Positions 1,490 to 34,902 of a DNA stretch of 34,902 nt are shown here, in pieces. The translations under genes and the position numbers were made by a program. The notes under the pieces are model-generated. The model was not told the DNA's origin. It saw only the letters and a list, made by a program, of their open reading frames with translations, and made no database searches. Each line of letters starts with the position of its first letter. Position 1 is the first letter of the stretch. The stretch comes from a virus: the IMG/VR virus record IMGVR_UViG_3300021956_000005; one strand, given 5' to 3'.

Positions 1490-1530
1490 AGAGCCGATAA
1501 AACCGGATTTTTAAAACATTGGAGTTTGAC

Positions 1531-1881: not shown

Positions 1882-1917
1882 TACCTTGCTGTAAACCTGT
1901 TCCATAAATCAAACCAT

Positions 1918-1941
1918 AGGCCGCTAAGCGGCCTTTTTTTT
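1918..1941 (+). terminator. Rho-independent terminator
   Basis: AGGCCGC-TAA-GCGGCCT stem followed by T8, 37 nt after the stop at 1881. Confidence 0.8.
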
Positions 1942-1956
1942 ACCTTGAGTAAATTT

Positions 1957-1999
1957 TTTCACCGATAGTGGTTGCATTGATCTTTCACTTTTGGTGAAA
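1957..1999. promoter_or_regulatory. Second operator pair (same motif as the switch region)
   Basis: 1957-1973 is TTTCAC-CGATA-GTGGTT; its left half and spacer are identical to the 1028 site. 1983-1999 is TTTCAC-TTTTG-GTGAAA, with perfect half-sites. Confidence 0.6.
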
Positions 2000-2001
2000 T
2001 C
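1973..2001 (+). promoter_or_regulatory. Sigma70-like early-right promoter candidate overlapped by an operator
   Basis: TTGCAT (1973-1978), a 17-nt spacer, then TGAAAT (1996-2001). The 1983-1999 operator sits in the spacer and -10 region. Confidence 0.4.
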
Positions 2002-2106
2002 TCTGTGCCCCCTTGCTGCCCAGGCCAGCGCGGATGCACTAAGGGCCTGCAGTGAATGGCTTCATTCAGGACACACCAGGACAGGGGGCACTAACAGGAG
2101 AAAGAG

Positions 2107-2223
2107 ATGAACAAGATTGCTTTTCTGATCATGGCTGTTTGTTTCGCCATCGCATCAAATGACGATTTTGATGATTACCAGGTGGCCCACGGTTCAATGT
2201 TGGTTGCTCAGTCTCATGAATAA
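2107..2223 (+). CDS. Small hydrophobic peptide (38 aa), signal-peptide-like N-terminus
   Basis: ATG at 2107 lies 6 nt after AGGAG (2096-2100). The peptide begins MNKIAFLIMAVCFAIAS. It is below the ORF-track size cut-off and was read by hand. Confidence 0.3.
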   Translation: MNKIAFLIMAVCFAIASNDDFDDYQVAHGSMLVAQSHE

Positions 2224-2383
2224 CTTTTTTGTGATTTTCGGCTTAATTGCTGGCGGGATCGCTTTGGCATGGCAAATCTACAAATTATGGAAGCAGGTTT
2301 TCGTTGATCCATTTGGAGACCGTGAGTTCCGTAGCGCCTTGCGGAAAATTGAAAAAGAAAAAAGGAGGATGCGGCCTCGATGA
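2216..2383 (+). CDS. Small membrane protein (55 aa)
   Basis: Internal ATG of track ORF 2159..2383. One TM helix: MNNFFVIFGLIAGGIALAWQIY. It overlaps the upstream small ORF, and its stop overlaps the next ATG (ATGA at 2380). Confidence 0.4.
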   Translation: MNNFFVIFGLIAGGIALAWQIYKLWKQVFVDPFGDREFRSALRKIEKEKRRMRPR

Positions 2384-2925
2384 GCGCGCCATTCAAAATC
2401 ATTGGCCTTGCCGGACAGGGAAGGAGCGGAAAAACAACCGTGGCTGACTACCTTTGCACTAAAGGTTTTCATCAGCTGGCTTTTGCTGATCCGATTGTGG
2501 ATGCCCTAGTCGCAATGCTTGATGTTCCCACCGAGTATCGCGTTGATAAAAAAGAGCTCCCAATTCCGGGCTTTAGTTTCAGCTATCGAAAGGCAGCTCA
2601 AACATTAGGGACTGACTGGGGTCGTCGCATGCTGGATCCAGATTTATGGATTCAAATCATGGCTAACCGGATCAAGGCGGTCGCTGATGACAGTGACTGC
2701 ATCGTGATCTCAGATGTTCGATTTGAAAATGAGGCTCGCTGGATACGAAGCCAGGGCGGAGAGCTTTGGCACATTATTCGGCCCTGCTTTGATGGTGGGG
2801 TAAGGAAACATGTATCAGAGGATGGAATTGCAATCCTTGAAGGTGAAACTGTCTTGATCAATGACAAAGGCATCGAAGATCTCTATGCGCATATAGATCC
2901 ATGGCTTTGGGCTGAGGTCTATTGA
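2380..2925 (+). CDS. P-loop deoxynucleoside-monophosphate kinase-like protein
   Basis: Walker A GLAGQGRSGKTT at the N-terminus. ISDVRFENEA and the FADP/TLGTDWGR context resemble phage dNMP kinases. Confidence 0.6.
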   Translation: MSAPFKIIGLAGQGRSGKTTVADYLCTKGFHQLAFADPIVDALVAMLDVPTEYRVDKKELPIPGFSFSYRKAAQTLGTDWGRRMLDPDLWIQIMANRIKAVADDSDCIVISDVRFENEARWIRSQGGELWHIIRPCFDGGVRKHVSEDGIAILEGETVLINDKGIEDLYAHIDPWLWAEVY

Positions 2926-2927
2926 TC

Positions 2928-3101
2928 ATGACCATCATTCTTATTGCTGTATTTTTTTTGGTCTTGCTGACCGTTCCTGTGATTACTGCCGTCTTCGCTT
3001 ATGGCTTGATGACTCATCTGCAAAAAAGAAAATCACGAGATCAAAGGATTTCGAAAGATCTTTTTTATGTCATGACACTGAATCGGCGGGGAATGCCATG
3101 A
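2928..3101 (+). CDS. Small membrane protein (57 aa)
   Basis: Hand-read ORF MTIILIAVFFLVLLTVPVITAVFAYGLM followed by a basic tail. It starts 3 nt after the kinase stop. Confidence 0.3.
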   Translation: MTIILIAVFFLVLLTVPVITAVFAYGLMTHLQKRKSRDQRISKDLFYVMTLNRRGMP

Positions 3102-3211
3102 CTGGATCCGCTGAGTTAGATGCCATCAGCGTCATATTAATTCTTTTCTTTGCAATCATTTTTCTTGAGTTTGTCCTGGGAATTTGCATTGGAGATTACT
3201 GGGATGAGTAG
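3098..3211 (+). CDS. Small membrane protein (37 aa)
   Basis: Hand-read ORF containing ISVILILFFAIIFLEFVLGICIG. It shows ATGA-type overlap with both neighbours. Confidence 0.25.
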   Translation: MTGSAELDAISVILILFFAIIFLEFVLGICIGDYWDE

Positions 3212-3854
3212 GCATATCTGGACGGATGAAGAAGTAGATGCCCTGCGCATTCTTTACCCAATCACCAGGACACAGGACATTGCTGATCAGCTCAATATCC
3301 CGTTGTCCAAGATTTATCACAAGGCCAAGAATCTTGGTCTTAATAAATCTGAATCCTACATGCGAGCCGAACTTACCAGACAAGGTGAAAGATTAAAAAC
3401 AGTTGGAAATCCTGCCCGTTTCAAGAAGGGACACGCCTCATGGAACAAAGGCAAAAAAGGTCTTGCGCTAGGCGGTAAGCAAACTCAATTTAAGCCAGGC
3501 CATATCCCCCACACTATCAAACCGATTGGGTCTGAGCGCATTAGCCAGGACGGTTATTTAGAAAGAAAGGTAACAAACGAGGGTCCCGCTCGATCACATT
3601 ACAAATTCGTTCATCGAATTATTTGGGAAGAAGCTTATGGCTCTATCCCAAGAACCCATTACGTGACGTTCAAAAATGGAAATCGGCTGGATGTACGGCT
3701 TGAAAATCTTGAACTTATCAGCATGGCAGACCATGCCAGGCGAATCAGCATCATGCGTTATCCGGAAGAGATCCGCGAAATCATGCTGTTAAAAGGAAGG
3801 CTAACCAAAGCAATCAGAAAACGGGAAAAATTAGATGAAAAACAAAATTGTTGA
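3204..3854 (+). CDS. HNH_3-like endonuclease-related protein (catalytic motif apparently degenerate)
   Basis: GHxSWNKG / KPGHIPHT repeats and FVHRIIWEEAYGSIP ... NGNRLDVRLENLELIS resemble the HNH_3 family. The usual His preceding the NGN motif is replaced (VTFKNGN). The ATG at 3204 is internal to track ORF 3150..3854. Confidence 0.55.
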   Translation: MSRHIWTDEEVDALRILYPITRTQDIADQLNIPLSKIYHKAKNLGLNKSESYMRAELTRQGERLKTVGNPARFKKGHASWNKGKKGLALGGKQTQFKPGHIPHTIKPIGSERISQDGYLERKVTNEGPARSHYKFVHRIIWEEAYGSIPRTHYVTFKNGNRLDVRLENLELISMADHARRISIMRYPEEIREIMLLKGRLTKAIRKREKLDEKQNC

Positions 3855-4086
3855 TCTTAGAAACCACCTTTTTGCAACGCTTGAGGCGCTTCAAGACAAA
3901 GATGACCCAATGGATCTTGCCCGGGCAAAAGCCATTGCTGATGTAAGTCAAACCGTCATTAATAGCGTCAAAGTTGAAATCGACTTCATCAAAGTCACTG
4001 ACCAGGTAGATGCCGAAAGTAAGTTTTTTGATATCCACCCTCATCTGGAGACGCAGCAGCCTAAAAAGCTTGTCGGTGTTTCATGA
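3835..4086 (+). CDS. Hypothetical protein (83 aa)
   Basis: ORF track. It overlaps the upstream gene end and is coupled to the next gene (ATGA at 4083). Confidence 0.5.
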   Translation: MKNKIVDLRNHLFATLEALQDKDDPMDLARAKAIADVSQTVINSVKVEIDFIKVTDQVDAESKFFDIHPHLETQQPKKLVGVS

Positions 4087-4283
4087 CCAAATACGTCACT
4101 GGCCGTTATGTCATCACGATGTTTGATGAGCGCGGCACCAAGATCGGACAGTTTGCCTCCAAGGAAGGAGGACTTATTAGGGCGCAAGAGATTGGCGCCA
4201 ACTTGATCAGAGAAAAAAGATGCCATTCATTCAATGTGCACCTAAACGTATTCAACAGCATGGATCCGAAGGGCCCCTGGTGA
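4083..4283 (+). CDS. Hypothetical protein (66 aa)
   Basis: ORF track, same-strand coupled array. Confidence 0.45.
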   Translation: MTKYVTGRYVITMFDERGTKIGQFASKEGGLIRAQEIGANLIREKRCHSFNVHLNVFNSMDPKGPW

Positions 4284-4299
4284 GTCTTTGAGGTTAATC

Positions 4300-4578
4300 G
4301 TGAGCATAAATATCGGACAAAAGTTTGGACGCTGGACAGTAATTTCTGCCACATCTCGCCTGGTCGGAGTTGCAAAACATAAAGCGTGGATATGCGAATG
4401 CAGTTGCGCCAGAAAGACCAAGCGCGCAGTGACCGAATATAGCTTGACCGGCCATCACAGCCGCAGCTGCGGAAAGTGCCCAGACAGTCAGTTCCGGCGA
4501 TGGATGACAAATGGTCTTTCTGGAGTTGGAAAGTATCGCAAAGAACCTCAGTGGTGGAAGGAGACCCAGCCAAAATGA
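4300..4578 (+). CDS. Hypothetical Cys-rich (zinc-binding?) protein
   Basis: GTG at 4300 lies 6 nt after GAGG (4290-4293). The pattern FGRWTVI ... WICECSC ... SRSCGKC is common in small phage DNA-binding-type proteins. Confidence 0.5.
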   Translation: MSINIGQKFGRWTVISATSRLVGVAKHKAWICECSCARKTKRAVTEYSLTGHHSRSCGKCPDSQFRRWMTNGLSGVGKYRKEPQWWKETQPK

Positions 4579-4760
4579 AGATCAAACGATTCATTGATCT
4601 AGCAGAAGAGTTTGTGGAGCCTCAGCCGGGAGAGGTTGAGACCTACTATCCATTTACTAGGCAGGAACTCATCGATCTGTTTTTACTCGTCCGCAAAGAG
4701 ATTATTGAAGATTTCTCAAAGGCAATGATCGATAAAGAATTAGAGTCCAAATCGATATGA
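4575..4760 (+). CDS. Hypothetical acidic protein (61 aa)
   Basis: The ATG at 4575 overlaps the upstream stop (ATGA). It is the internal part of track ORF 4476..4760. Confidence 0.4.
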   Translation: MKIKRFIDLAEEFVEPQPGEVETYYPFTRQELIDLFLLVRKEIIEDFSKAMIDKELESKSI

Positions 4761-4924
4761 AACTAATTTTGCAAATTGCATGGGCAATTCCAGTCCTTGC
4801 TGTTTTTATTCTTGCTTTTCCATTTGTATATTTAGGGTTTTCAGTTCTTGCTACATGGATCCTAGCTAATGCGTTTTCCTCAGCTACTGTAGGAAAGATT
4901 GAGGATGGGTGGAGGGCAAAATGA
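4757..4924 (+). CDS. Small membrane protein (55 aa)
   Basis: Hand-read ORF with two hydrophobic helices: MKLILQIAWAIPVLAVFILAFPFVYLGFSVLATWILANAF. ATGA overlap at 4757. Confidence 0.3.
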   Translation: MKLILQIAWAIPVLAVFILAFPFVYLGFSVLATWILANAFSSATVGKIEDGWRAK

Positions 4925-4952
4925 GCATCATGAAACCTAAGCTGGGGCTCTC

Positions 4953-5309
4953 ATGAAAGACAGAGAGCTTATGGAAAAAGCGCTTGAAGCTTTATCAGGT
5001 GGACTAGATGTTCGATTGACAATAAATGCGCTCAAGGATCGGATTCGGGCATTAAAACATCAAGAGGAATGGTATTCGCTACCCAAAGAAGCCAGAGACA
5101 AAATAAGGATGGCAGCGACAGGAAATCGCAATGTCTGGAAAGCAGAGCTTGACCCAAAGTATCAAAAAGCGAAAGAACTTCGCGAAAGCGGAATGATGCT
5201 GAAGGATGCTTGCACTGTCGCTGGAATTTCTACTGAGCAGTGGTACAGGCGTCAGGCGATCGAGAAGTATGGCAAAGCCAGGGCTGGCGGTAAAAGGAGG
5301 CAGGAATAA
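4953..5309 (+). CDS. Hypothetical protein with possible C-terminal HTH
   Basis: ORF track. MLKDACTVAGISTEQWYRRQ looks HTH-like. Confidence 0.5.
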   Translation: MKDRELMEKALEALSGGLDVRLTINALKDRIRALKHQEEWYSLPKEARDKIRMAATGNRNVWKAELDPKYQKAKELRESGMMLKDACTVAGISTEQWYRRQAIEKYGKARAGGKRRQE

Positions 5310-5656
5310 TGAGCGAAACAAAATTCACGCCGGGGCCATGGATTCCAGCGGGACCTAGTTTTGGCGAACCCAAAATGAGGTTTGCAAACTCAGTTATCCC
5401 TGACAGAGACGATGATGAATACCCGGATGATATTTGCGAAATGCCGTTCCCTTATTACGACGAAGAACAAGAAGCCAACGCCCACCTAATCGCCGCCGCG
5501 CCGGATATGTACGAAGAGCTTGAGTGCGCGAGGGACTTATTTCGGTTTTATCAGTCGCATCACGAATTCAAAGGCGGGACCGAGAAGGCCATTCGAAATA
5601 AGGAAATTGCCGATCGGATTGATCGGTTGTTGGCTAAGGCTAGGGGTGACGCATGA
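5309..5656 (+). CDS. Conserved phage hypothetical protein (TPGPW ... ANAHLIAAAPDMYE motif)
   Basis: ORF track. The motif pair recurs in many phage early proteins of unknown function. Confidence 0.55.
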   Translation: MSETKFTPGPWIPAGPSFGEPKMRFANSVIPDRDDDEYPDDICEMPFPYYDEEQEANAHLIAAAPDMYEELECARDLFRFYQSHHEFKGGTEKAIRNKEIADRIDRLLAKARGDA

Positions 5657-6030
5657 GTACCGCAACCGAACTGCTCAGACGTGTGCTTGATGATCTTGAA
5701 TTGCAAGTCGGACGATCCATAGATGAAATCCGCACTTTCCTCGCCGCCGAGCCAGAAGCGGAGCCTGTGGCGTGGATTCCAGAGGACGAACTGCCGGAAC
5801 GATATCCTTACAACTTCATGTTCCAGTATTCCAAGGTAGACATCATTCGATGGTTTCCGATCTATGGCCCATCCAGACCCTCGCCAGCAAGGAAGCCGAT
5901 GACGGAGGAGGAGATAAAAGACTTATATGACCAGGCTGGACACCATGATTTTGATATGGTTGTGCGATCTGTTGTTGAGTTTGCCAGAGCAATAGAAAAG
6001 CACCATCTGATCGGAGTGAGCGATGAGTGA
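5653..6030 (+). CDS. Hypothetical protein (125 aa)
   Basis: ORF track. ATGA overlap at 5653. Confidence 0.5.
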   Translation: MSTATELLRRVLDDLELQVGRSIDEIRTFLAAEPEAEPVAWIPEDELPERYPYNFMFQYSKVDIIRWFPIYGPSRPSPARKPMTEEEIKDLYDQAGHHDFDMVVRSVVEFARAIEKHHLIGVSDE

Positions 6031-6286
6031 CACACTAGATTCAAAAGGAGCCGCCGAGCTTCTGCATGTGTCAGTAAAACATATTCAGGAATTGGCCAGG
6101 AAAGGAGAAATTCCAGCGGTCTGGATTGCTGGTCAATGGATCTTCATCAAAGATGATCTTTTGAGCTCATTAGCTCAAAGGGCCAGGGATGAGCAAAGGC
6201 AAAGACGTGAAATGAGTCTGCACGTCAATTCAATCGTGGAATCAGTAAATCCACGTAAGCCTGGTCGGCCTCGGAAAGCAGCATAA
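6023..6286 (+). CDS. xis: Excisionase-family HTH DNA-binding protein
   Basis: GAAELLHVSVKHIQELARKGEIPAVWIAGQWIFIKDDL matches the excisionase/MerR-type HTH_17 pattern. It lies immediately upstream of attP and int. Confidence 0.65.
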   Translation: MSDTLDSKGAAELLHVSVKHIQELARKGEIPAVWIAGQWIFIKDDLLSSLAQRARDEQRQRREMSLHVNSIVESVNPRKPGRPRKAA

Positions 6287-6417
6287 TGCAATCACTTCCC
6301 GTTAAGTGGACTGTCAGTCCATCTACCGAAAACGTAGGTAATACTACTTACGCAGCTGACCAAGGTGTGATTGGTTTTGTGATCGTCATCTACAGGCCTT
6401 TGATAGCAATGGATTGG

Positions 6418-6466
6418 GTGGATTGCAAATCCATCTAGGGCGGTTCGACTCCGCCACGCGCCTCCA
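6418..6466 (+). other. attP core candidate: 3' two-thirds of a tRNA-Cys(GCA) gene (anticodon arm, variable loop, T arm, 3' acceptor strand, CCA)
   Basis: The fragment reads GTGGA-TTGCAAA-TCCAT CTAG GGCGG-TTCGACT-CCGCC ACGCGCC TCCA. It parallels E. coli tRNA-Cys from the anticodon stem onward. No upstream GGCGCGT pairs with the 3' acceptor strand, and the D arm does not fold, so this is a fragment and not a gene. Confidence 0.65.
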
Positions 6467-6469
6467 TAA

Positions 6470-6482
6470 AATCAAGCACTTA
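6470..6482 (+). promoter_or_regulatory. IHF consensus site (WATCAANNNNTTR) next to the tRNA fragment
   Basis: AATCAAGCACTTA matches the consensus at every specified position. Confidence 0.4.
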
Positions 6483-6608
6483 CGATAAAATCAGTCCATC
6501 TAATGGTGCTTGAAAACCCCCTAAAAACCCCTAAAATCCCCCCCTAGTGTGGTTAAACCGCACTTGTAATGGATCGACATGTCCATCTAGTCTTAGGGGG
6601 AAGACACC

Positions 6609-7646
6609 ATGGCCACCATCCGCAAGCGCCCGTCCGGGAGCTACGAAGTCACCATCCGCCGTAAGCTCCTGCCCCGGCCGATTTCCGTCTCGGCCGAGAC
6701 TGAAACTCAGGCCAAGGCCCTGGCTGAGCGCATCGAGGCGCAGCTCGATCTCGGCATCATTCCCGAAGATTTTCTGACCCTCCAGCCCCGCTCGTTCTGG
6801 AATGTCTCCAGCTGGACCGAAGAATACGAAAAATCCGGCAAACCCTCGGCCTCAGATCGCCCTCTGTTGAAAATCGTGCGCTCCGATCTCAAGACCCTGG
6901 CACTTAAGGATCTCAATCCAGTGAACCTTGAAAAGTGGATTCAGGCCATGAGGGCCCGGCGATTGAGACCCGGCAGCATCAAAAAGCGGGTGGGGGCCCT
7001 AGGCCGGTCGCTGGATCTCGCCGTACACCGCGAAATCCTGGTCTTTAACCCGATCCGGAATCTGCCCAAGAACTATGCCGCCTACAGCGAAGCCGATGGC
7101 GAAATCATCGAGGATGGCGTCCGCGATCGGCGGCTGGAACCCGGTGAAGAGGCGCGCCTCGATGCGCAGCTGCAACCTCATCCCGATCTCTGGCTCCTAT
7201 TTCATCTAGCTCTGGAGACCGCCATGCGGATGCGCGAAATGTTTACCCTGACCCTCGACCAGGTCGACCTTAAAAAACGCACGATTTTTCTGCAGAAAAC
7301 CAAGAACGGCGACAAACGCCAGGTGCCCTTGAGTTCGATAGCCCTCGGCTTTTTAACGGAGCGGATTCAGGGGGCCGATCCCAGCGCCCTGCTCTTTCCC
7401 TATTTTGATGGCCATCTCGATAACACCACCCGACGCATCAGCTATTACTGGTCCTCGATCACCGAAAAAGCGGGCATCGAAGACCTTCATTTTCATGATT
7501 TGCGTCATGAGGCCACCTGTCGCCTGTTTGAGCGGACCCCCATGTCGGATCTTGAAATTGCCACCATCACCGGTCATCGGGATCCCCGCATGCTCAAGCG
7601 CTATGCCAATTTGAGGGGCTCAGATCTGGCGCAGAAAATGTGGTGA
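6609..7646 (+). CDS. int: Tyrosine recombinase / phage integrase
   Basis: ETAMRMREM (Arg I), HFHDLRHEATCRL (H-x-x-R), GHRDPRMLKRYANL (His/Tyr). N-terminal SAM-like arm. Adjacent to xis and attP. Confidence 0.95.
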   Translation: MATIRKRPSGSYEVTIRRKLLPRPISVSAETETQAKALAERIEAQLDLGIIPEDFLTLQPRSFWNVSSWTEEYEKSGKPSASDRPLLKIVRSDLKTLALKDLNPVNLEKWIQAMRARRLRPGSIKKRVGALGRSLDLAVHREILVFNPIRNLPKNYAAYSEADGEIIEDGVRDRRLEPGEEARLDAQLQPHPDLWLLFHLALETAMRMREMFTLTLDQVDLKKRTIFLQKTKNGDKRQVPLSSIALGFLTERIQGADPSALLFPYFDGHLDNTTRRISYYWSSITEKAGIEDLHFHDLRHEATCRLFERTPMSDLEIATITGHRDPRMLKRYANLRGSDLAQKMW

Positions 7647-7691: not shown

Positions 7692-8174
7692 CTAGATTTC
7701 AATTTTGGCGGCTTCAATGAACAATAGATCCAAATCGCTATCCGACCATCCCATGCCGGCAGCAATCGAAAGCAACATTGGTGATTCGCGCCGATACTCG
7801 ATGGCATTAGTCCAGGCCAGTTTGACCAAGGGATCGGTGGAGGCATTGACGTAAGCCTCCACTGCATCGAGCGAGCCTTCCTGCAATAACACGGCCTTGG
7901 CCTGTAGCGGTGAGACGGCTTGCGGCACCTCGCTGGGTGGCGGTGTCCAGGTCGGCAATGCCGGCGGCTGGGCATTCGGGAAATCCGCGCGAGTTAGGCC
8001 ATAGCGCCCAATCACGCTATTGTCCTCAATTGCCACAAAACGGCGGTTGATGTCATCGCGCTGGATCAGCCACAGGCTTCCTTCTAAAAGCTGCATGAAT
8101 TCCGCATGCTCCACAGTCCCCTCCAGGGCGTCCAAATCCTCACGGGTGTTAATGATGGTCGTGGCCAAGCTCAT
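7692..8174 (-). CDS. Hypothetical protein (160 aa) immediately downstream of, and overlapping, the DGR RT gene
   Basis: The ATG at 8174 is preceded by GGAG and overlaps the RT 3' end by 26 nt. It is the last gene before the terminator. It has a Pro-rich linker (PPALPTWTPPPSEVPQ). No family recognised with confidence. Confidence 0.55.
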   Translation of the reverse strand: MSLATTIINTREDLDALEGTVEHAEFMQLLEGSLWLIQRDDINRRFVAIEDNSVIGRYGLTRADFPNAQPPALPTWTPPPSEVPQAVSPLQAKAVLLQEGSLDAVEAYVNASTDPLVKLAWTNAIEYRRESPMLLSIAAGMGWSDSDLDLLFIEAAKIEI

Positions 8175-9165
8175 AATGACTCTCCAGGTAATGCAACAGA
8201 TGGTGGGTATCCGCCCAGCGGGCATGTCCTGCCCAGGCGGCAATGAATTGATTCAGCGCCACGGGATCCCTATGGGTGATGGCGTTCTGAATTTTGCGTT
8301 TGGCCCGGATGACGGAATCCTTGCGTAACAATTTATGCGTAGGCCAAATCCGGTAGCCGAGGAAATTGATGCCGCGGGACGTATTAGCCACCTGCCATTT
8401 GCTGATGCGAAGCCCGAGCTGGGTTTCGGCAAAGGTGCTCATGCGGGTGAACGTCTCACGCAGCGATTCCGAATCCTGACCCAGCACAATGATGTCGTCC
8501 ATGTAGCGGGCCCAGTGCCGTTCCTCGAGATCAAAATGCAAGAACCGATCGACCGCGCCGCCATAGACATTGGCAAACAGCTGCGAGGTCAGGCTCCCAA
8601 TCGGAAGGCCCTGCCCTTGAGGTGGAATAATTTCCCGCAATACAGCCAAAGTCTGAGGGCAACCAATCTTCTTTTCGATCATCCGATGCAAGACCGCATG
8701 CTGAATGCTCGGAAAAAACTTTCGAAAATCGGTTTTTAAAAAATGCGTCGCTTGAGTCTTCCGAAGGCGTGACTGAATATGACGCACCCCGGCATGGGTC
8801 CCAAGCCCAGGGCGACACGCAAAGGTATAAGGCAATAGGCTTTTCTCGAAGATTGGGCCAATGACGTTGCAGACTGCATGCTGAACCAGGCGATCTTTGA
8901 AGCCCAGAGCCGAAATCAGTCGCGGCTTGGGTTCAAAGATGGTGAATTCTCGATAAGGGCCGATCTGATATCGGCCTTCCAAAAGCTCATCCTGAATCTG
9001 TTTCAGATGCAGCTGATCGTATTCCTTGAAATTGAGATAGCCCCACGTCAGCCGCTTGCGTTGCGTGGTTCGAAAATAGGCCTGCCGCAGATTGGCCATA
9101 TCGGCAATCTTTGGCATCAATTGATAGTGAGGGGCGCTCATGAATGCTGGCCGCGCTTTTCCCAT
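8149..9165 (-). CDS. DGR reverse transcriptase
   Basis: RT motifs include LPIGSLTSQLFANVY (the DGR-type I/LGxxxSQ motif) and YMDDIIVLG (catalytic YxDD). The gene lies directly downstream of avd and TR. Alternative start at 9141. Confidence 0.93.
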   Translation of the reverse strand: MGKARPAFMSAPHYQLMPKIADMANLRQAYFRTTQRKRLTWGYLNFKEYDQLHLKQIQDELLEGRYQIGPYREFTIFEPKPRLISALGFKDRLVQHAVCNVIGPIFEKSLLPYTFACRPGLGTHAGVRHIQSRLRKTQATHFLKTDFRKFFPSIQHAVLHRMIEKKIGCPQTLAVLREIIPPQGQGLPIGSLTSQLFANVYGGAVDRFLHFDLEERHWARYMDDIIVLGQDSESLRETFTRMSTFAETQLGLRISKWQVANTSRGINFLGYRIWPTHKLLRKDSVIRAKRKIQNAITHRDPVALNQFIAAWAGHARWADTHHLLHYLESHYELGHDHH

Positions 9166-9288
9166 CCGTGGTACTCAGCGCTCTGCCAGACCCTGAAACG
9201 TGTTCCCCGAAGGAGGATCCCACCGGCTGACCACATGTTGAAGTGGACGGCCTGCTGAGCCTTGACCGCAGCAGAGCGAAGATCATGT

Positions 9289-9408
9289 GTCACAGGCGCA
9301 CCGCAACCCGATGTTGTTGTTCGAGTTCGAGGCAGCGTTGTTCCAGTTCGACGAACGCGAACCGCAGTTCGCCCCGTTGTTCCAGTTGCCGCCAAAGATC
9401 GCCGCGTT
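9289..9408 (-). repeat. DGR template repeat (TR), 120 bp
   Basis: It aligns without gaps to 9838..9957. In the coding sense it carries 12 AAC codons and starts at the avd stop codon. Confidence 0.9.
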
Positions 9409-9796
9409 AATTCCCGGTAGACCCCTGCTTTTTCTTCCGTTTGATCCACATGTTCAACATCCCGCCGACCTCGCTGACCAGTCCCTGGGCAAACTCGAGT
9501 TGATGATGGCTCATGCAGCGCTGAACGTGAAGAAATCGCATCCAAAAGCGAAGATGCGCGAGTCCCGCATCTGCCGCGTAAAGCTTGCCGACCTGATTGG
9601 ATTTTCCGGCCTGAAAGAACAGGTCCGGTTGCCGCATCAGGCATTGCAGAAACAGATCGCGGGCCACGCCATGCTTTCGAGGTATCGACTGAGCAATCGG
9701 GTAAAGATACCCAATCACGCGTTCGAATTTCTCGACAATGGCCATTTGGTCGTAGCATGCGATCTGCTCATCCGGTTGTTGGGGTTCGTCGCTCAT
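9407..9796 (-). CDS. avd: Accessory variability determinant (Avd)
   Basis: A 129-aa basic helical protein (KFERVIGYLYPIAQSIPRKHGVARDLF ... LRFWMRFL) in the canonical position between target gene and TR. It resembles the Avd / 23S-rRNA-IVS four-helix-bundle family. Confidence 0.8.
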   Translation of the reverse strand: MSDEPQQPDEQIACYDQMAIVEKFERVIGYLYPIAQSIPRKHGVARDLFLQCLMRQPDLFFQAGKSNQVGKLYAADAGLAHLRFWMRFLHVQRCMSHHQLEFAQGLVSEVGGMLNMWIKRKKKQGSTGN

Positions 9797-9803
9797 CCTG
9801 AGC

Positions 9804-9819
9804 GGGCGCTTTCGCGCCC
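9804..9819 (-). promoter_or_regulatory. GC hairpin with GAAA tetraloop just 3' of the VR-bearing gene
   Basis: The minus strand reads GGGCGC-GAAA-GCGCCC, a 6-bp perfect stem. It begins 1 nt after the target-gene stop codon and ends 7 nt before the avd ATG. Confidence 0.7.
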
Positions 9820-11463
9820 TTAATCAAGGATCAGGTGGTCACAGGCGCACCGCAACCCGATGGTGCTGCTCGAGGTCGAGGCAGCGTTGTCCCAGAGCGA
9901 CGAACGCGACCCGCAGCCCGCCCCGGTGCCCCAGGCGCCGCCAAAGAGCGCCGCGTTGGGTGGGTTATACGATTGGCCACGACCCCCGGTATCGGACTGC
10001 CAGGCGGCTGTGGTGTTATAGGGTCCGCCGCGTTCCTGTCCCCAGACCCACATGACGCCGGTGGCCTGAATCAGGCCCCATTTGGAGGTATAGGCTGCAT
10101 TCAGAATGGTCGAGCCTTGATCGGTCCCGATGGAGGAGCCTTCGGTCGTTCCATAGGCTGCTGCCATGAATTCCGATTGGAACAAAGGTCGCTTGCCATA
10201 GGCATGGGCGACTTCCTGCGCTTCAAACCAGGTCAAAGAACCGTAGGCGGTCGAGCCATTGCCGCCATAGAGCGTCGGGATCTTTGGGGGTGAGGAGCCA
10301 TCCGCAATGGTGACGTTATATTTCGAGGTGCCATTGGTCCCGGGATCGGTATTGGTCAGATAAATATCGGCCCAGAAGCCACCCGCGATCAGCGCCATGC
10401 CGCGCGGATCGGGACAGGCCGGTCGGAATTTCAAATCCCAGAAGGAATACTGATTAATCTGTGCGGTCGTATTGCCGCCTGTCGTGCCCGTGGCATTGCC
10501 GCCCGGCGCATAGTGGAATCCGCCGACCTTACGCGCCCCCGTTGTGGGAGGTGAGGTGTGATTGGTGGTGGCCTCTAAAGTGCCATCGGTTTTGGCCCAG
10601 ATGGCATAGTCGGTGCCGGCTGTGGCGGTACCAGGCATCGTCACCACCGTACCCGAGGCAATCGTCTTGATGGCGCCATTGACCTCGACATACAGCGCGG
10701 TCTGCGTTGAGACCGTAAAGTTGCCGGTTTTACTGAAAAGAACGACCGTGGGATCGGCTTTTCGAAACAGGCCATACCCCGGCGCCAAGGCGGCAATGGC
10801 CTGAGCAATCCGCAATGGCGTCATGGTTCGAAGTGCCGTAACGCTTCCAGCCTCCATCTCGGCCTGTGTGGCTGCGGTTTGAGCCAAAAGACTGGCTGTG
10901 ACATCAACATCGACCGTCATCGTCTTGGCGGTTGTTCCTCCTTGAAGAAGAAAACCGACTGCTTGGGGCGTGACGCCCAGCCCAGGAGCTCCCCGCGCAC
11001 CGGTTAGGGAGATATTCCAATCGGCTTTGCTTGTGGATCCTGAAATGACTTGAATGTCAATGGTGAGCTGATCGGCGGCATAGGCCGTAACTTGGCCAAA
11101 ACCCCAAATGCTGGGCGCCGAAGCCGAAACCACAGTGACAAAAATACCCGCCGTATATTGCTCACCTGCCTGAACCGTAAAGGTTTTAGAGCCAATGACT
11201 GGTGACCATGCGGTAGTCGATGTTGAGACAAAGGCGCCGGCAATCGCCGCGGCTGAGGCGGCGCTGGCTGAGGCAGCTGCTGCGGAAGCTGCGGCTTCCG
11301 TTGCTTTGGTGACCGTATTGGCGGCAACGGCGACCGTTTGTGCCAGGGCAGGAACAAAACGCGTCCGATGGCCACCATTGGCTAGTCCGGTGCTGGGATT
11401 GCTGTCATCGGTAACGGTTGAGCCGTCACCACCAACTGAGGTTGCGAATGTAACGCTGCTCAC
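9820..11463 (-). CDS. DGR target: tail fibre / receptor-binding protein with C-terminal C-type-lectin (FGE-sulfatase-like) fold
   Basis: It is the last gene of the tail module. It has an Ala-rich N-terminal helix. The C-terminus carries GVMWVWGQE ... FGGAWG ... GLRCA, which resemble CLec-fold DGR variable proteins (Mtd-like). It contains the VR. Confidence 0.88.
   Translation of the reverse strand: MSSVTFATSVGGDGSTVTDDSNPSTGLANGGHRTRFVPALAQTVAVAANTVTKATEAAASAAAASASAASAAAIAGAFVSTSTTAWSPVIGSKTFTVQAGEQYTAGIFVTVVSASAPSIWGFGQVTAYAADQLTIDIQVISGSTSKADWNISLTGARGAPGLGVTPQAVGFLLQGGTTAKTMTVDVDVTASLLAQTAATQAEMEAGSVTALRTMTPLRIAQAIAALAPGYGLFRKADPTVVLFSKTGNFTVSTQTALYVEVNGAIKTIASGTVVTMPGTATAGTDYAIWAKTDGTLEATTNHTSPPTTGARKVGGFHYAPGGNATGTTGGNTTAQINQYSFWDLKFRPACPDPRGMALIAGGFWADIYLTNTDPGTNGTSKYNVTIADGSSPPKIPTLYGGNGSTAYGSLTWFEAQEVAHAYGKRPLFQSEFMAAAYGTTEGSSIGTDQGSTILNAAYTSKWGLIQATGVMWVWGQERGGPYNTTAAWQSDTGGRGQSYNPPNAALFGGAWGTGAGCGSRSSLWDNAASTSSSTIGLRCACDHLILD
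9838..9957 (-). repeat. DGR variable repeat (VR), 120 bp, last 40 full codons before the 6-codon tail of the target gene
   Basis: 104/120 identical to TR. 15 of the 16 differences sit at TR adenines (coding sense). The invariant 3' part encodes IGLRCACD. Confidence 0.9.
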
Positions 11464-19051: not shown

Positions 19052-19366
19052 TTAGTCTTTCGGAAGTTTGGTTTCGGCCCATTGCTCCAATAGGAGAATG
19101 GTTCGGCTGCCCATGTGGCCCGCAATGCCGACCAGTGCGGCAGAAACTAAAGGATCGATTTCGCCAGCTTCACAGAGCCAAAAGGTCAGGACGCCAGCAA
19201 AACCCGCCGTGACAATCTCACCGACCAATTCCAGAATGTTGAAGGCGCGCGATTTGCCTTCACGAATCTTTTGTATAAATGAAACCACGCCACCCACCAT
19301 GGAAAGTCCCAAGACCCAGGAGTAGGTCAAGATGTCGTAACTGGTAGGGTCTTTCGATGGGTCCAT
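19052..19366 (-). CDS. Holin-like membrane protein (104 aa, about 3 TM helices)
   Basis: The ATG at 19366 follows GAGGA. Hydrophobic segments: ILTYSWVLGLSMVGGVVSFI, ILELVGEIVTAGFAGVLTFWL, LVSAALVGIAGHMG. It lies directly downstream of the endolysin. Longer starts at 19393 or 19429 are possible. Confidence 0.6.
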   Translation of the reverse strand: MDPSKDPTSYDILTYSWVLGLSMVGGVVSFIQKIREGKSRAFNILELVGEIVTAGFAGVLTFWLCEAGEIDPLVSAALVGIAGHMGSRTILLLEQWAETKLPKD

Positions 19367-30012: not shown

Positions 30013-30294
30013 TCAATACGGAATGTCATCATTGGGAGCGCCATCATCATTGGGTGGCAACGATGTCTGCCCATCCGCTGATTTAGATCTTGGCCGGTAT
30101 AAATTTCCAATGATCGAATCCCGATTGGGGTCTCGATTTAAACCAGCCGGATTAAAGGTTGCCTTGAGGGTAAAGAATTTCCCTTTTTCACCCTGAAAGA
30201 TAGCGCCGATTGCTTCGTAGTTATTCTTCATTTCGCCGGCAGCAGTTCGATACTGTCCGGTGACCACGACCAGGTCATAAAGTTTTTCAGCCAT
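30013..30294 (-). CDS. Hypothetical small protein ending in an SSB-tip-like acidic motif (NDDIPY)
   Basis: The ATG at 30294 lies 6 nt after GGAGG. After a beta-rich N-terminal ~55 aa comes a disordered tail ending PPNDDGAPNDDIPY, compared with the DDDIPF tip of bacterial SSB. Confidence 0.5.
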   Translation of the reverse strand: MAEKLYDLVVVTGQYRTAAGEMKNNYEAIGAIFQGEKGKFFTLKATFNPAGLNRDPNRDSIIGNLYRPRSKSADGQTSLPPNDDGAPNDDIPY

Positions 30295-30538
30295 TCTTGT
30301 CCTCCAGGACGCTGCGCATGGTTTCCATCTCCTCCTGAGGCGAGGTCCGATCCAGTTTGAGACGATTGGCAATGGAGGCATCAAACCCGGCAGCGACCAG
30401 AACCGAGCGAAATGAGGCTAACCAGTGACCCAAGGAGCCATCGCCCTCGGTCGCCAATTGGACAGGCGTCTGGGTTTTGAAGCCTGGAATGGAGGTTTCG
30501 CAAGAAATCTCAATCAAATGCGTATTGTTTTTGCTCAT
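30287..30538 (-). CDS. Hypothetical protein (83 aa)
   Basis: Internal ATG (30538) of track ORF 30287..30772, chosen because upstream codons overlap dut in another frame. Confidence 0.4.
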   Translation of the reverse strand: MSKNNTHLIEISCETSIPGFKTQTPVQLATEGDGSLGHWLASFRSVLVAAGFDASIANRLKLDRTSPQEEMETMRSVLEDKNG

Positions 30539-30545
30539 GACCGTC

Positions 30546-30995
30546 TCAGATTCCGCTGGAGCCAAACCCGTTTTCACCGCGGACGGATCGCTCCAGGGAG
30601 TCGACCGGATCAAAGAGAGCCTGAAGTACGGGAACCAAGACCGCTTGGGCAATGCGTGCCCCGGGCTCGATCGTAAAGGGCTTGTGATCGTCAGTATTTT
30701 GCAAAATGACCTTGATCTCTCCACGGTAACCGGGGTCAATCGTGCCAGGCGCATTGGCGACCACAATTCCATGATTCAGGCTCAGGCCTGATCGAGACCG
30801 GATCTGAAGCTCATAGCCTTCAGGAATGGCTACGCTTAATCCGGTCGGAATCGCTTTTCGCTGGCCAGGCCACAGTGAAATACTCATGGGAATGCTGGCT
30901 TTAAGATCAGCGCCGGCATCATGAGGGTGCGCATATTCAGGCAGCAGGCTGTGATCAGTGACTTGGCAAGGAATTCTCAAGGTCTCATCGGTCAT
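30546..30995 (-). CDS. dut: dUTP diphosphatase (trimeric dUTPase)
   Basis: AGADL, IPTGL, RSGL, GTIDPGYRGEI and the C-terminal GFGSSG motifs are all present. Confidence 0.95.
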   Translation of the reverse strand: MTDETLRIPCQVTDHSLLPEYAHPHDAGADLKASIPMSISLWPGQRKAIPTGLSVAIPEGYELQIRSRSGLSLNHGIVVANAPGTIDPGYRGEIKVILQNTDDHKPFTIEPGARIAQAVLVPVLQALFDPVDSLERSVRGENGFGSSGI

Positions 30996-31009: not shown

Positions 31010-31570
31010 TTAAATCGTTTCTGCCTTGCGGCGAAGGTGTTCGCTGATATCGGCCAAGAGGTCATGCGCCGCATCATCCAGTTCTTTGTGTATGGCGGTT
31101 ACGTCACCCCGGTGGGAGGCGCAGGCCGGTGCGTAGCGGTCCGCTAAGGTGGCCAGCTTTTCTGCAAAGGTTTTGCCAATATCAGCCAGGACAAAATCAA
31201 TCTCTGATCGCTCGACCAGAAGACCCGCGGCCTTATCCAATTCGATGTTGGCCATTTCTGCCTTAGCTTCGCGCTCTTTCATCGTCGCCATCTTGAGTCG
31301 AAGGCCAATCCGCTCCACCGGGGTCATGGGCTCCTGAGGCATCTCAGGTGCTTCTCTAGCTTCAGCCTTGGCATCATCAATCTGCGCCTTGGCGGCTTGA
31401 TGATGCGGCGCTGGGCTTTCCGTCATTTCCCTTTGTCGTAAGCCTTCATCAACATCCAGCAACCCATCCCCCCCGAGCTTGAGCCTGCCGGCCTTGATCC
31501 AGCGGGAGACGGTGGATTTATTGACGTTGGCAATCTTGGCAAATTCCGTCTGAGTAACGCGCTTACCCAT
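31010..31570 (-). CDS. terS: Terminase small subunit (Nu1-like, N-terminal winged HTH)
   Basis: The ATG at 31570 lies 6 nt after GAGG. TQTEFAKIANVNKSTVSRWIKAGRL is the HTH. The central region ERIGLRLKMATMKEREAKAEMANIELDKAAGLLVERSEIDFVLADIGKTF parallels lambda Nu1. Confidence 0.7.
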   Translation of the reverse strand: MGKRVTQTEFAKIANVNKSTVSRWIKAGRLKLGGDGLLDVDEGLRQREMTESPAPHHQAAKAQIDDAKAEAREAPEMPQEPMTPVERIGLRLKMATMKEREAKAEMANIELDKAAGLLVERSEIDFVLADIGKTFAEKLATLADRYAPACASHRGDVTAIHKELDDAAHDLLADISEHLRRKAETI

Positions 31571-31582
31571 GATTAACCTCAA

Positions 31583-31672
31583 AACCACGCCAAGAAGTGG
31601 AAAAACCACGCCATAAACCACGGCAAAAATCTTCTAACTCTTTGAAACCACTTAAACCACGGCAACCACGGC
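31583..31672 (+). repeat. Iteron array, left arm: AACCACGSC x5 plus one degenerate copy
   Basis: Copies at 31583, 31604, 31616, (31646 degenerate: AACCACTTA), 31655 and 31664. Confidence 0.85.
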
Positions 31673-31752
31673 AGTCACACATGTGCGCGCGAGGCGCACG
31701 CGTTCCATTGATATTCGGTGTATTTTTTTCTGTGCGCGTATGCGCGCGGGTT

Positions 31753-31834
31753 GGCGTGGTTGGCGTGGTTTCCTTATTCCATGCGGGTTTCAGCCGTGGT
31801 TTTTGGCGTGGTTGATGCCGTGGTTGGCGTGGTT
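31753..31834 (-). repeat. Iteron array, right arm: GSCGTGGTT x6 (inverted orientation)
   Basis: Copies at 31753, 31762, 31793, 31805, 31817 and 31826. The last ends 1 nt before the primase stop codon. Confidence 0.85.
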
Positions 31835-34213
31835 TCATGACTCAAACCCCATGGCCAGGCTGAAAGCAAAAAAAGAGGAAGTCAGCCATTCGGCTTTGCT
31901 GGAATACTTATCGCGCATGAATTCGCGCTGCTTTCCTGTCGCGCATCGTTCGAGGCTAGCCTGGAGCACTCCCTCTGAGGGGATCACCATCTTTCGATTC
32001 TTGATGGTTCGATCATTGAGATCCATCCAGGTGGGATTGGACTCGCCTGCCGACCAGCCTTGGGTTTTTCCACACAAGCTGATCAGGTCTTTCTGGCCTC
32101 GTTTTCGCTCCCCATGCCGCTCACACCATCGCTCGTAAAGCTGATACAGGTGCGACCCAAGACAGGGACACAGCGGGATGGTGTTGCCATCAGGCCCTTC
32201 CAGCTCAAGACGGACCCATTCATCTAGGAATCGCTCTTCAGAACTTTTGCCAAGCTCCTGTAGATCGGACTTCGATCGCGTCATGGGCGGTTTGGTCCAG
32301 GGCTTGAAATCGCCCAGGTCCAGATTCAGAAGAAAATAATGCAGGGCCTCGATGCCGCCGGATTCGATTTCTGAATTGACGTCTTCAAAGAATGAATCGG
32401 ACAGTTTTGGTGGAACCCAGATGACGACGTGACGTCGATCGTCCTTTTCCATCACCAGAGGCATCCGCTCATTGGATAGAAAGACGATGTTCATGTGATT
32501 TCGCTCGGTGTGAGCAGCCACATTTTTTGGATTGACGCGGATGGTATCTCCAGTCACAAACCCCTTGAGGCGGTTTTTGATGTGATACATGTCCTGACGC
32601 GCCAGGACTTCATCCGCCAGGATAAAAAGCTTTTTCTCAGCCCAATCGGCATTGAACTTGTCTTCCAAAGCCTCTTGGCCCAAAACCCTGAAGTAAGGAC
32701 CAAAAATCTTGCCGTAAGCCTCAAAAAATCGGCTTTTTCCGGTGCCCTGCGGGCCATGAATCACCAAAGCCGTGTGCATCTTGGCCCCTCGATGCTGAAT
32801 CGGGTAAGCCAGCCACTTCAGGATCCAGCCATACACCTCGTCACTATTAGCTTCATTGCTGCAGAGGTAATACAAAAGATCCAGCAAAGCCTCGCATTTG
32901 CCCTCGATGGGCACTGAAGGCCAGCCACCAAAAAGGTTGCATCGGATCGATAGATCCTGTTCGGTGGGATCAAACCCGACTTCGGTATCTCTTGCGACGC
33001 GCCAGCGGGGATCGGTCTTCAGCATGTCCCAAGACCTGGGCGGCAAAAGATTCATGACGTCATCCTTGTGGACCAGGCGACGATCCTTTTCATCGAAAAG
33101 AACCTTTCCGCCCATCCCATACGTCCCCCAAAACCTTTGCACCGCATCCTCAACGGAAATCAACGATGGCATGACGGACTCCCCGCCCCCCGCAGGGAGA
33201 AGGCCCGCCGCAGAGGGCTTCACCGCATCCCATCCCGCTTCGGTTATGGCCTCTTCGATCTGGCGAGCTACCAGGTGCAGGCCCCCTGTTGGAAACAGAG
33301 CCAAATCATTGAAATCGGTAAGCTTCTTACCCTCTCGATCGGTAGGAAACCTTGGAGCCACCACTCGACCATTGACGGCCATGGCCGCCGCCTGGGCAGC
33401 AGTAACCCCTGGATTCCCCGCGGACAAATAATCATCATCAGCGCAAACCAAGATCCGAGCCGATCGATAGCGCTTCGAAAGCGACTGGGAAACGGGCAGA
33501 AGATTATTGGCATCAAATGCCACGGCCACTGGGAGGCCAGTCGCCTCATGCAGGGTGGCCGCTGTGGCATAGCCTTCAGCCACCAAAAGAAGATCCCGTG
33601 GCGTTCCGATTAGGTGGTAATGGCCTTGCTTGATAATCCCGCGGGGCCAGTATTCTTTTTCCAGCTGGCCCGGCCTTCGCTCTGCCCGAATGATCTGGAG
33701 ACCATGGATCTTTCCAGACTCATCGGCCATCGGGATCGCAATGGTTCCATTTCCTGAGGGAGCAAATCGGATGCCATGCGCCTTGACCTTTTTTCTCTCG
33801 AGGTATGCCGACTGCCCATCCTGGACATAAGCTGACCAAGCATGAGTTGCTTTACCAGAGGCCTTCACCGCCTGCGCCTCACGAATGGCTTTCATCCGCT
33901 TGGCATTGGCCTGATGTCGTGCGGCAATGGCGGCCTTTTGGTCATCAGTCAGGTGGCTACGCTTGCCCAGGCGAACCTTTTGCTTACCTGAGTCATTGCC
34001 TCGATAAACGCCAAAGCTTCCGACGATCAAAGGAACTTTGCAGCCCTCCCCGTCGACAAGAATTTCGGAAAGCCAGTACCAGCCCCGCTTTTCCCTATCG
34101 CCGTTGATCTCTCGACAGCGGATCGGCTGAGCCGTTCCGATCTGAAGGTGTTCGACATCAAGGCCACCAGCGCGCAGCTGCTCAAGGACGTCTTCGTAGT
34201 TTTCCCAGCTCAT
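31835..34213 (-). CDS. Bifunctional primase-helicase (Toprim primase domain plus P4-alpha/D5-type NTPase)
   Basis: Toprim: LLLVAEGYATAATL ... ILVCADDD. Walker A VIHGPQGTGKSRFF and Walker B LFILADEV lie in the C-terminal half. The N-terminal region MSWENYEDVLEQLRAGGLDV is typical of the P4 alpha/TraC-like family. Confidence 0.9.
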   Translation of the reverse strand: MSWENYEDVLEQLRAGGLDVEHLQIGTAQPIRCREINGDREKRGWYWLSEILVDGEGCKVPLIVGSFGVYRGNDSGKQKVRLGKRSHLTDDQKAAIAARHQANAKRMKAIREAQAVKASGKATHAWSAYVQDGQSAYLERKKVKAHGIRFAPSGNGTIAIPMADESGKIHGLQIIRAERRPGQLEKEYWPRGIIKQGHYHLIGTPRDLLLVAEGYATAATLHEATGLPVAVAFDANNLLPVSQSLSKRYRSARILVCADDDYLSAGNPGVTAAQAAAMAVNGRVVAPRFPTDREGKKLTDFNDLALFPTGGLHLVARQIEEAITEAGWDAVKPSAAGLLPAGGGESVMPSLISVEDAVQRFWGTYGMGGKVLFDEKDRRLVHKDDVMNLLPPRSWDMLKTDPRWRVARDTEVGFDPTEQDLSIRCNLFGGWPSVPIEGKCEALLDLLYYLCSNEANSDEVYGWILKWLAYPIQHRGAKMHTALVIHGPQGTGKSRFFEAYGKIFGPYFRVLGQEALEDKFNADWAEKKLFILADEVLARQDMYHIKNRLKGFVTGDTIRVNPKNVAAHTERNHMNIVFLSNERMPLVMEKDDRRHVVIWVPPKLSDSFFEDVNSEIESGGIEALHYFLLNLDLGDFKPWTKPPMTRSKSDLQELGKSSEERFLDEWVRLELEGPDGNTIPLCPCLGSHLYQLYERWCERHGERKRGQKDLISLCGKTQGWSAGESNPTWMDLNDRTIKNRKMVIPSEGVLQASLERCATGKQREFMRDKYSSKAEWLTSSFFAFSLAMGFES

Positions 34214-34419
34214 TCAGCGGCCTCCATGGCCGTCGGGGTTGTCCCTGCCAGCGCACTTTTGTCTAGCGAAAAACCGCGGCTCTTTACACCCGTTTTGAGT
34301 ACCCACCAGGAGGACCCGCGCACGGTTGCACCCCCCTGATCCTTTGCGTTGCTTTGCAACAGGCAATGCAACCTGAAAGCGAAAAAAAATCCCATGGGGA
34401 ACGGGGTCAGAAGGCTCAT
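34210..34419 (-). CDS. Hypothetical protein (69 aa), supported only by coupling
   Basis: Its ATG overlaps the upstream stop (ATGA at 34416-34419) and its stop overlaps the primase ATG (ATGA at 34210-34213). The composition is unremarkable and no family was recognised. Confidence 0.3.
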   Translation of the reverse strand: MSLLTPFPMGFFFAFRLHCLLQSNAKDQGGATVRGSSWWVLKTGVKSRGFSLDKSALAGTTPTAMEAAE

Positions 34420-34685: not shown

Positions 34686-34831
34686 CAAGTCGAGTGAGCC
34701 AATCGGTGGTTAGTTTTGCGAATGGCTCTGGCTTTACATTCCTTGCACCATGGCTGCATGTGCTTGACGCCATGGCAAAGGTCAAAGTCACCCAATGGCC
34801 TGAACGTCTTGCAATGAGGGCAGCGCTTCAT
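34685..34831 (-). CDS. Small zinc-ribbon protein (48 aa; CPHC ... CKEC)
   Basis: Hand-read ORF MKRCPHCKTFRPLGDFDLCHGVKHMQPWCKECKARAIRKTNHRLAHST. Its 5' part lies in the terminal overlap, and a truncated copy sits at nt 1-56. Confidence 0.5.
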   Translation of the reverse strand: MKRCPHCKTFRPLGDFDLCHGVKHMQPWCKECKARAIRKTNHRLAHST

Positions 34832-34902
34832 TGAGCGCCCTGCCCTGGTATCCGCCATCCCGATGGCGAACGCACCAATGCAATGCCGGTCTCTTCATAA
34901 AC
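34776..34902. repeat. Terminal overlap, copy 2 (identical to 1..127)
   Basis: Direct comparison, 127/127 identical. Confidence 0.95.

Follow-up and report, generated by a model that had tools for sequence, protein, structure and literature searches.

A two-armed iteron array downstream of a primase-helicase gene as the probable replication origin of a temperate phage and its relatives

The 264-bp gap between the primase-helicase gene and the terminase small subunit (TerS) gene of a complete temperate phage genome most likely (about 85%) serves as its replication origin. Sequence comparisons point to recognition of this gap by the putative C-terminal DNA-binding domain of the upstream primase-helicase, which would act as a self-loading SF3 initiator. 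The short repeats (iterons) in the gap are nonrandom. Their position 3' of the primase gene, their number, and their geometry are conserved among relatives, and their sequence varies with the primase instead of with TerS.

The window analyzed here is the whole 34,902-nt stretch of the IMG/VR virus record IMGVR_UViG_3300021956_000005. An exact 127-nt direct terminal repeat (i.e., positions 1 to 127 are identical to positions 34776 to 34902) indicates that the window is a circularly closed complete genome of ~34.8 kb, opened at an arbitrary point.

Iteron array and flanking genes

The gap and its surroundings contain the following features.

31010 to 31570, minus strand: TerS gene (186 aa), with an N-terminal helix-turn-helix (HTH); phrog_57
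31583 to 31672, plus strand: TerS-proximal iteron arm, five exact copies and one degenerate copy of AACCACGSC, reading toward the core
31673 to 31752, no strand: 80-bp core between the arms, with purine-pyrimidine tracts at its edges, a palindrome, and an AT-rich center
31753 to 31834, minus strand: primase-proximal iteron arm, six exact copies of AACCACGSC, reading toward the core
31835 to 34213, minus strand: primase-helicase gene (792 aa), encoding a Toprim primase, an SF3/D5-type helicase (DUF5906, VapE-like), and a C-terminal domain

Within the gap (31571 to 31834; 264 bp), 11 exact copies and 1 degenerate copy of AACCACGSC span positions 31583 to 31834. The 34.9-kb window holds 12 exact matches (0.56 expected; 12 were reached in 0 of 100 shuffles), 11 of which are within the gap. 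The only exact copy outside the gap (AACCACGCC, 19283 to 19291) is inside a coding region and, given the 0.56 copies expected, is consistent with chance. A scan of the complete genome detected no second iteron cluster outside the gap, even allowing one mismatch.

Exact iterons start at 31583, 31604, 31616, 31655, and 31664 on the plus strand (n = 5) and at 31753, 31762, 31793, 31805, 31817, and 31826 on the minus strand (n = 6); the degenerate iteron, AACCACTTA, is at 31646 on the plus strand. Moving away from the core, successive iterons are spaced 9, 31, 12, 12, and 9 nt apart in the primase-proximal arm and 9, 9, 30, 12, and 21 nt in the TerS-proximal arm. The outermost iteron of the primase-proximal arm abuts the primase stop codon (31835 to 31837), and only the TerS ribosome-binding site (GAGG) lies between the last iteron at the other end and the TerS ATG (31570). 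The core, presumed to be a melting and loading zone, contains the palindrome GTGCGC-GCGAG-GCGCAC (31683 to 31699), two copies of TGTGCGCG (31682 and 31731), an AT-rich center (31703 to 31730), and alternating purine-pyrimidine tracts at both edges (CGCGCGCATACGCGCAC and GCGTGCGCCTCGCGCGCACATGTGTG).

An earlier sequence-only reading of this DNA had described the six plus six inverted 9-mers, the palindrome, and the repeated TGTGCGCG, all of which are present, and had placed them between a P4-alpha-type primase-helicase and a Nu1-like TerS. The Pfam and phrog matches agree with these flanking genes, both of which are on the minus strand. The AT-rich stretch that it reported is real, but the coordinates given for it (31702 to 31729) were one base off.

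A search of the gap for sigma-70-like promoters gave none. Two terminator-like matches were found there, both inside iterons, and an Rfam search gave no meaningful match. GC skew along the window was dominated by gene orientation and hence uninformative.

The primase-helicase matched Toprim_3 (PF13362; 6e-10) and DUF5906 (PF19263; 2e-23) in Pfam, phrog_2249 "DNA primase" (2e-126), and the NrS-1 primase helicase structure 6k9c (3e-14), and it was 27% identical to P4 alpha over aa 39 to 395, i.e., the Toprim region (E, 2e-14). The candidate initiator thus unites a primase and an SF3/D5-type helicase. It was the sole replication gene found, given that the ORFs scanned gave no match to DnaB, DnaC, replisome-organizer, ParAB-type, or plasmid Rep proteins. 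A terminase large subunit (TerL) of the lambda gpA type implies that this is a cos phage.

Between the TerS and TerL genes (30013 to 30995, minus strand) are a dUTPase gene (30546 to 30995) and a 123-aa ORF of unknown function (phrog_18187). The lysogeny/accessory region (800 to 7646) includes an integrase gene (6609 to 7646), repressor-like genes (800 to 1099, minus strand; 1103 to 1489, plus strand), a dNMP kinase gene (2380 to 2925), and an HNH endonuclease gene (3150 to 3854). At 8149 to 11463 (minus strand), a reverse transcriptase gene (phrog_1423; 2e-114) adjoins a 206-aa ORF and a tail protein gene (phrog_11262), an arrangement that resembles diversity-generating retroelements of the Bordetella phage BPP-1 type and that would target the tail fiber.

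Iterons in relatives and the protein proposed to read them

A search of IMG/VR with the primase returned 80 loci (37 to 98% identity), of which 78 had enough downstream sequence. These 78 contigs, the window, and Stenotrophomonas phage S1, the primase of which is 45% identical to that of the window, made up the 80 loci analyzed. Relatives were obtained only via the primase: a search of the cultured-phage collection with the gap DNA and the TerS protein returned nothing, and a scan of genome contigs with TerS returned just two weak HTH matches, in Clostridia.

Short 8- to 9-mer repeats in both orientations were present in all 80 loci (7 to 24 copies; median, 12). In every locus, the distance between the primase stop codon and the first iteron was −1 to 34 nt (the two overlap by 1 nt in one locus), which puts the cluster immediately 3' of the initiator gene. 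The symmetric 12-iteron layout of the window had been called unusual; with a median of 12 copies across the 80 loci, it is instead the norm in this primase family. The iteron sequence varies among the relatives (AACCACGSC, AACTACGCC, TTCCACGC, ATCCACG, GTCCACGCC, TGTTCCGGGT, TGTTCAGGGT, CGCACGGG, and others), with about 12 to 14 copies of the ATGTGCGGG type in S1. Despite the changed sequence, the same iteron start offsets recur (0, 9, 21, 33, 64, and 73, followed by ~160, 170, 180, 212, 224, and 245). Orientations are mixed within an arm in the TGTTCCGGG-type relatives.

In the S1 record (L086; NC_011589.1), the annotated "gp2 hypothetical protein" (2454 to 2804) coincides with the S1 iteron array and is probably not a gene.

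The AT-rich core had been interpreted as an unwinding element. It is specific to the window, and we rejected it as a conserved unwinding element because an AT-rich core is not conserved among relatives (e.g., core GC of 0.65 to 0.71 in L007, L010, and L026). The AT-rich dips that are conserved are the ~30-bp gaps inside each iteron arm, not the core. Purine-pyrimidine alternation was 0.70 in the cores of 37 relatives versus 0.51 in the adjacent coding DNA, and alternating tracts such as CGCGCAYRTAYGCG and CTCGCGCGYRTRT occur at both core edges. These tracts could be Z-DNA-prone points of melting, start sites for the primase, or a site for a host factor. Many relatives also have conserved CTCGCGCGTAT(G/A)T-like motifs at the TerS-side core edge.

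A TerS-family gene was found downstream of the primase gene in 78 of the 80 loci. It starts 257 to 2,414 nt past the primase stop codon (>400 nt in 33 of 76 loci), and 33 of the 76 loci have at least one gene inserted ahead of TerS, after the array. Given that this distance varies and that the iterons remain at the primase stop codon, the iterons stay with the primase. In the window and about half of the relatives, the array ends 12 to 40 nt ahead of the TerS start codon. The TerS HTH (VNRSTVxRW...GRI) is nearly identical across loci with unrelated iterons.

Two loci (L073 and L066) are natural chimeras with iterons that match their primase and not their TerS. Their TerS is 61 to 67% identical to that of AACCACGG-type loci; their iterons are TGTTCCGGG, and their primase C terminus groups with phages of the TGTTC(C/A)GGGT type. 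The recombination junction in both falls between the putative origin and TerS.

Iteron distance was correlated with the last 100 aa of the primase (Spearman rho, 0.44) more strongly than with TerS (0.18 to 0.22), values that are confounded by shared ancestry, and the correlation peaks over primase residues about 705 to 745. In the close clade, the best covarying column was Pro727 (normalized MI of 0.52 versus 0.30 for the best TerS column, again confounded by shared ancestry), where Pro is paired with AAC-CACG, Ala with (A/T)TC-CACG, and Arg with GTC-NACG. The iterons are in this way matched to the initiator, with a determinant in its C-terminal domain, although the match is correlative only. 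The residues concerned fall in a predicted structural unit.

31979 to 32155, minus strand: winged-helix-like unit, primase residues 687 to 745, as predicted by AlphaFold2

The AlphaFold2 model of primase residues 600 to 792 (pLDDT, 87.9) places Pro727 in a beta-hairpin after the HTH. The predicted unit consists of a helix (686 to 700), a putative recognition helix (707 to 716), and a beta-hairpin wing (721 to 729 and 737 to 744). A Foldseek search with the C-terminal model placed winged-helix domains at the top, led by Orc1/Cdc6 (2qby_A, bound to origin DNA) and including the MarR family, ORC, and RFX, but the best E value (0.17) was not significant. The origin-binding domain of P4 alpha (1KA8) was absent among the 50 Foldseek matches listed, and hhalign aligned the C-terminal profile with P4 alpha only in the helicase region (probability, 10.9%), not in the C-terminal domain. 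With this E value and no similarity to the C-terminal domain of P4 alpha, assignment of the primase C terminus to the winged-helix fold is suggestive only. We propose that the primase-helicase is the initiator that reads the iterons; TerS is their neighbor and not their reader.

Position of the cos site

The ends of related contigs and of the S1 record were used to locate the packaging cut site.

34279 to 34290, minus strand: cosN, inferred 12-nt cohesive-end sequence GGTGTAAAGAGC, from contig ends and S1 record ends

This site precedes the primase ATG by 66 nt; the iterons are 2.4 kb away, on the other side of the primase gene. Its conserved flanks (about 34238 to 34406) include GCGGGTCCTCCTGG (34306 to 34319), GCAAC/GTTGC repeats (34325 to 34372), and CGCTAG (34263 to 34268). 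At least 17 IMG/VR contigs begin exactly at the homologous GGT upstream of the primase gene, and a 98% identical relative of the window (L001) begins at GGTGGAAAGAGC. Five contigs terminate 9 to 13 nt past the homologous GGT: two close relatives of the window, L087 and L088, end 12 nt (…GGTGTAAAGAGC) and 9 nt (…GGTGTAAAG) past it, respectively, and three further contigs end 11 to 13 nt past it. In the linear GenBank record of S1, the last letters are GGTATTCGGACG, which puts the right end exactly 12 nt past the homologous GGT; the S1 primase starts 39 nt into the record. We rejected the left end of this record (GGGTACATAGCGG) as the homolog of the contig-start motif; the true homolog is GGTATTCGGACG, at the right end. 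Phage S1 reportedly has 12-nt 5' protruding cohesive ends, with which the ends of its record agree. No contig end or S1 record end fell in the primase-TerS gap; all were at the homolog of 34279 to 34290. These ends place the cos site there and not in the iteron gap.

The cos upstream motif was found in at least 120 IMG/VR viral contigs (loci L090 to L209). The gene order was cos-primase-TerS in 11 cos-motif contigs. Another 57 contigs shared the cos motif and the TerS family but had neither the primase nor the iterons; in these contigs, TerS followed cos within mostly 50 to 300 nt. Given these 57 contigs, iterons are present only where the primase is present, and the primase and iterons together behave as an inserted cassette, with cos and its flanks on one side and TerS on the other. 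Some primase-bearing relatives have one extra gene between cos and the primase gene.

The sequence-only reading had left the gap as "ori and/or cos," with a lambda-like cos and its R sites as one option. The ori half of this proposal is well supported by iterons that are 3' of the primase in all relatives examined, follow it through recombination, and covary with a residue of its predicted C-terminal wing. The cos half fails: contig ends and S1 record ends map 2.4 kb away at 34279 to 34290, the 57 primase-less cos contigs are without iterons, and the TerS HTH stays constant.

Origin model, known systems, and alternatives

Head-to-head loading of two hexamers is suggested by the six iterons per arm, the hexameric helicase family, and the opposed arms. 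In the mechanism that we infer, the primase-helicase would bind the iterons, and each arm would recruit and orient one hexamer, yielding a head-to-head double hexamer. The core (rich in alternating purine-pyrimidine tracts and, in the window phage, AT rich) would be melted, the Toprim domain would prime, the host polymerase would then take over, and bidirectional theta replication would follow. Given that the array fills the gap down to the TerS ribosome-binding site, TerS/late transcription must cross the putative origin. A more ambitious joint reading would make the 6+6 layout a literal double-hexamer template with one iteron per winged helix, the Z-DNA-prone purine-pyrimidine core edges (and not an AT-rich element) the conserved melting points, and the >20 iteron variants together with wing residue 727 (P/A/R/K) a recognition code; origin occupancy could then couple replication to late-gene expression. 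Taken as a whole, this combination is unlikely.

The closest known systems are P4 crr and SaPI ori. The 300-bp crr of P4 has ten alpha-binding octamers in both orientations and begins 46 nt after the alpha stop codon; P4 and the window thus share 10 to 12 short iterons, in both orientations, over ~260 to 300 bp directly 3' of the initiator gene. The initiators have the same domain order, and their N-terminal primases are homologous (27% identity, as noted above). Distant relatives of the window primase use TGTTCAGG/TGTTCCGG, which are near the P4 iteron TGTTCACC. In P4 alpha, the SF3 helicase is followed by a C-terminal winged-helix domain (PMC2777425). The C-terminal domains of P4 alpha and the window primase have no detectable sequence similarity. 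The two systems also differ in layout. The ori and crr of P4 are two clusters separated by 4.5 kb, whereas the complete window genome has only one cluster and, in this respect, no bipartite origin of the P4 type. In P4 crr, a 120-bp unit is duplicated in tandem, whereas the window array has two arms of six iterons that converge on a core. P4, a satellite, has no terminase genes; the module in the window is between the cos and TerS of a complete temperate phage. Because P4 crr, the positional homolog of the gap, is a cis-acting enhancer and P4 initiates at its second cluster, 4.5 kb off, initiation at exactly the gap stays an assumption.

SaPI iteron sets flank an AT-rich region; in the window family, the conserved core feature is the alternating purine-pyrimidine tracts. 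As summarized in PMC7581432 (citing Ubeda 2007), the SaPI origin has iterons directly downstream of the rep helicase gene that are read by the Rep C-terminal domain, apparently as two hexamers. The same source describes matched iteron/initiator specificity that differs between related elements, which is a further likeness to the window family. It gives the SaPI primases (SaPIbov1 and SaPI5) as AEP type, unlike the Toprim primase of the window, and the SaPIbov1 primase as a protein separate from Rep (PMC7581432). The SaPI host is Gram positive (Staphylococcus aureus), and the likeness drawn here is one of layout. The archaeal plasmid pRN1 encodes ORF904, which is described as a primase-SF3 helicase with a predicted winged-helix domain (PMC4234260, PMC2777425). 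According to PMC4234260, 166 bp downstream of this primase-helicase gene are essential, which parallels the window in that a required cis sequence is directly downstream of such a gene. However, pRN1 is an archaeal element with a primase of the prim-pol type, whereas the window has a Toprim primase.

Lambda cos resembles the window at 34279 to 34290, where a 12-nt cohesive end with conserved flanks accompanies a gpA-type TerL and an HTH-containing TerS; it differs in that the 6+6 iterons are 2.4 kb from the window cos, with the primase gene between them. This bears on the possibility that the iterons are cosB-like or pac-like TerS-binding sites, as are the lambda R sites upstream of Nu1. The short distance from the array to the TerS start codon in the window and about half of the relatives, the N-terminal HTH of TerS, and the cos packaging implied by its TerL would all suit such sites. 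However, the inferred physical ends of the virion DNA are outside the gap, beyond the primase gene, and conserved cosB-like flanks remain beside them; in 33 of 76 loci, >400 nt and as much as 2.4 kb separate TerS from the iterons; and the 57 primase-less contigs have cos and TerS without any iterons. The repeats are neither linked to nor covarying with TerS, the HTH of which is near invariant across unrelated iterons, and the two chimeras keep primase-type iterons. Binding of the iterons by TerS is hence largely refuted already, and we give it very little credence. Also very improbable is an array that serves mainly as a set of operators, bound by the primase-helicase or some other phage regulator, to control whether transcription of the early primase gene continues into the late TerS/TerL/head operon. 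A TerS transcript must indeed cross the iterons, the gap has no sigma-70-like promoter that we could find, and the motifs at the TerS-side core edge are conserved in many relatives. Yet the array remains with the primase when genes intervene before TerS, and 12 sites in two convergent arms of fixed geometry go far beyond the needs of an operator. A transcriptional role could coexist with origin function, alongside it and not instead of it.

The enhancer role of P4 crr raises the further possibility that the array is a crr-like enhancer or a copy-control ("handcuffing") site on which the primase-helicase acts, with replication starting elsewhere, as in the P4 ori/crr pair. Its position is exactly that of P4 crr, 3' of alpha, with a similar size and iteron number, and the AT-rich core is not conserved. 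Against this, a complete genome with one stray copy (19283) and no cluster at one mismatch offers no second initiator-binding cluster to serve as ori, and the convergent two-arm geometry resembles the SaPI origin and not the tandem 120-bp repeats of crr; we regard an enhancer or copy-control role as improbable. The inverted arms might instead act through DNA secondary structure (i.e., a cruciform or a single-strand hairpin origin) and not as protein-binding iterons, in line with the fold predicted for the gap as single-stranded DNA (−75.8 kcal/mol; z = −8.4 versus shuffles). This strong fold is a by-product of the inverted 9-mers. Relatives conserve the repeat units and not an uninterrupted stem, the stem in the window is interrupted because the spacings of the two arms are not mirror images, and the mixed orientations within an arm of the TGTTCCGGG-type relatives also argue against a structural role, which is extremely improbable.

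Three other roles were considered and set aside. A plasmid-partition (centromere-like) role is unsupported, with no ParA/ParB-type match among the ORFs scanned. A repressor-operator role is unsupported by the gene content, the repressor-like genes (800 to 1489) being far from the gap. A plasmid-type iteron origin would have 17- to 22-bp direct iterons, a DnaA box, and an AT-rich element; the units here are 9 bp in two inverted arms, the AT-rich core is not conserved, and the ORFs scanned yielded no plasmid Rep gene.

The principle of an origin of this kind is already known from P4 and SaPI. Reading the iteron gap as the probable replication origin decides which cis-acting site is which, with the iteron gap as the origin and cos in front of the primase gene. 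The annotation and orientation of genomes in this phage group would be corrected accordingly; for example, "gp2" of S1 would be an origin and probably not a gene. The primase and its origin would form a cassette that is a movable module between cos and the TerS gene. With one geometry and many iterons, the 80 loci provide a comparative set for how a self-loading SF3 primase-helicase may read its origin and switch specificity.
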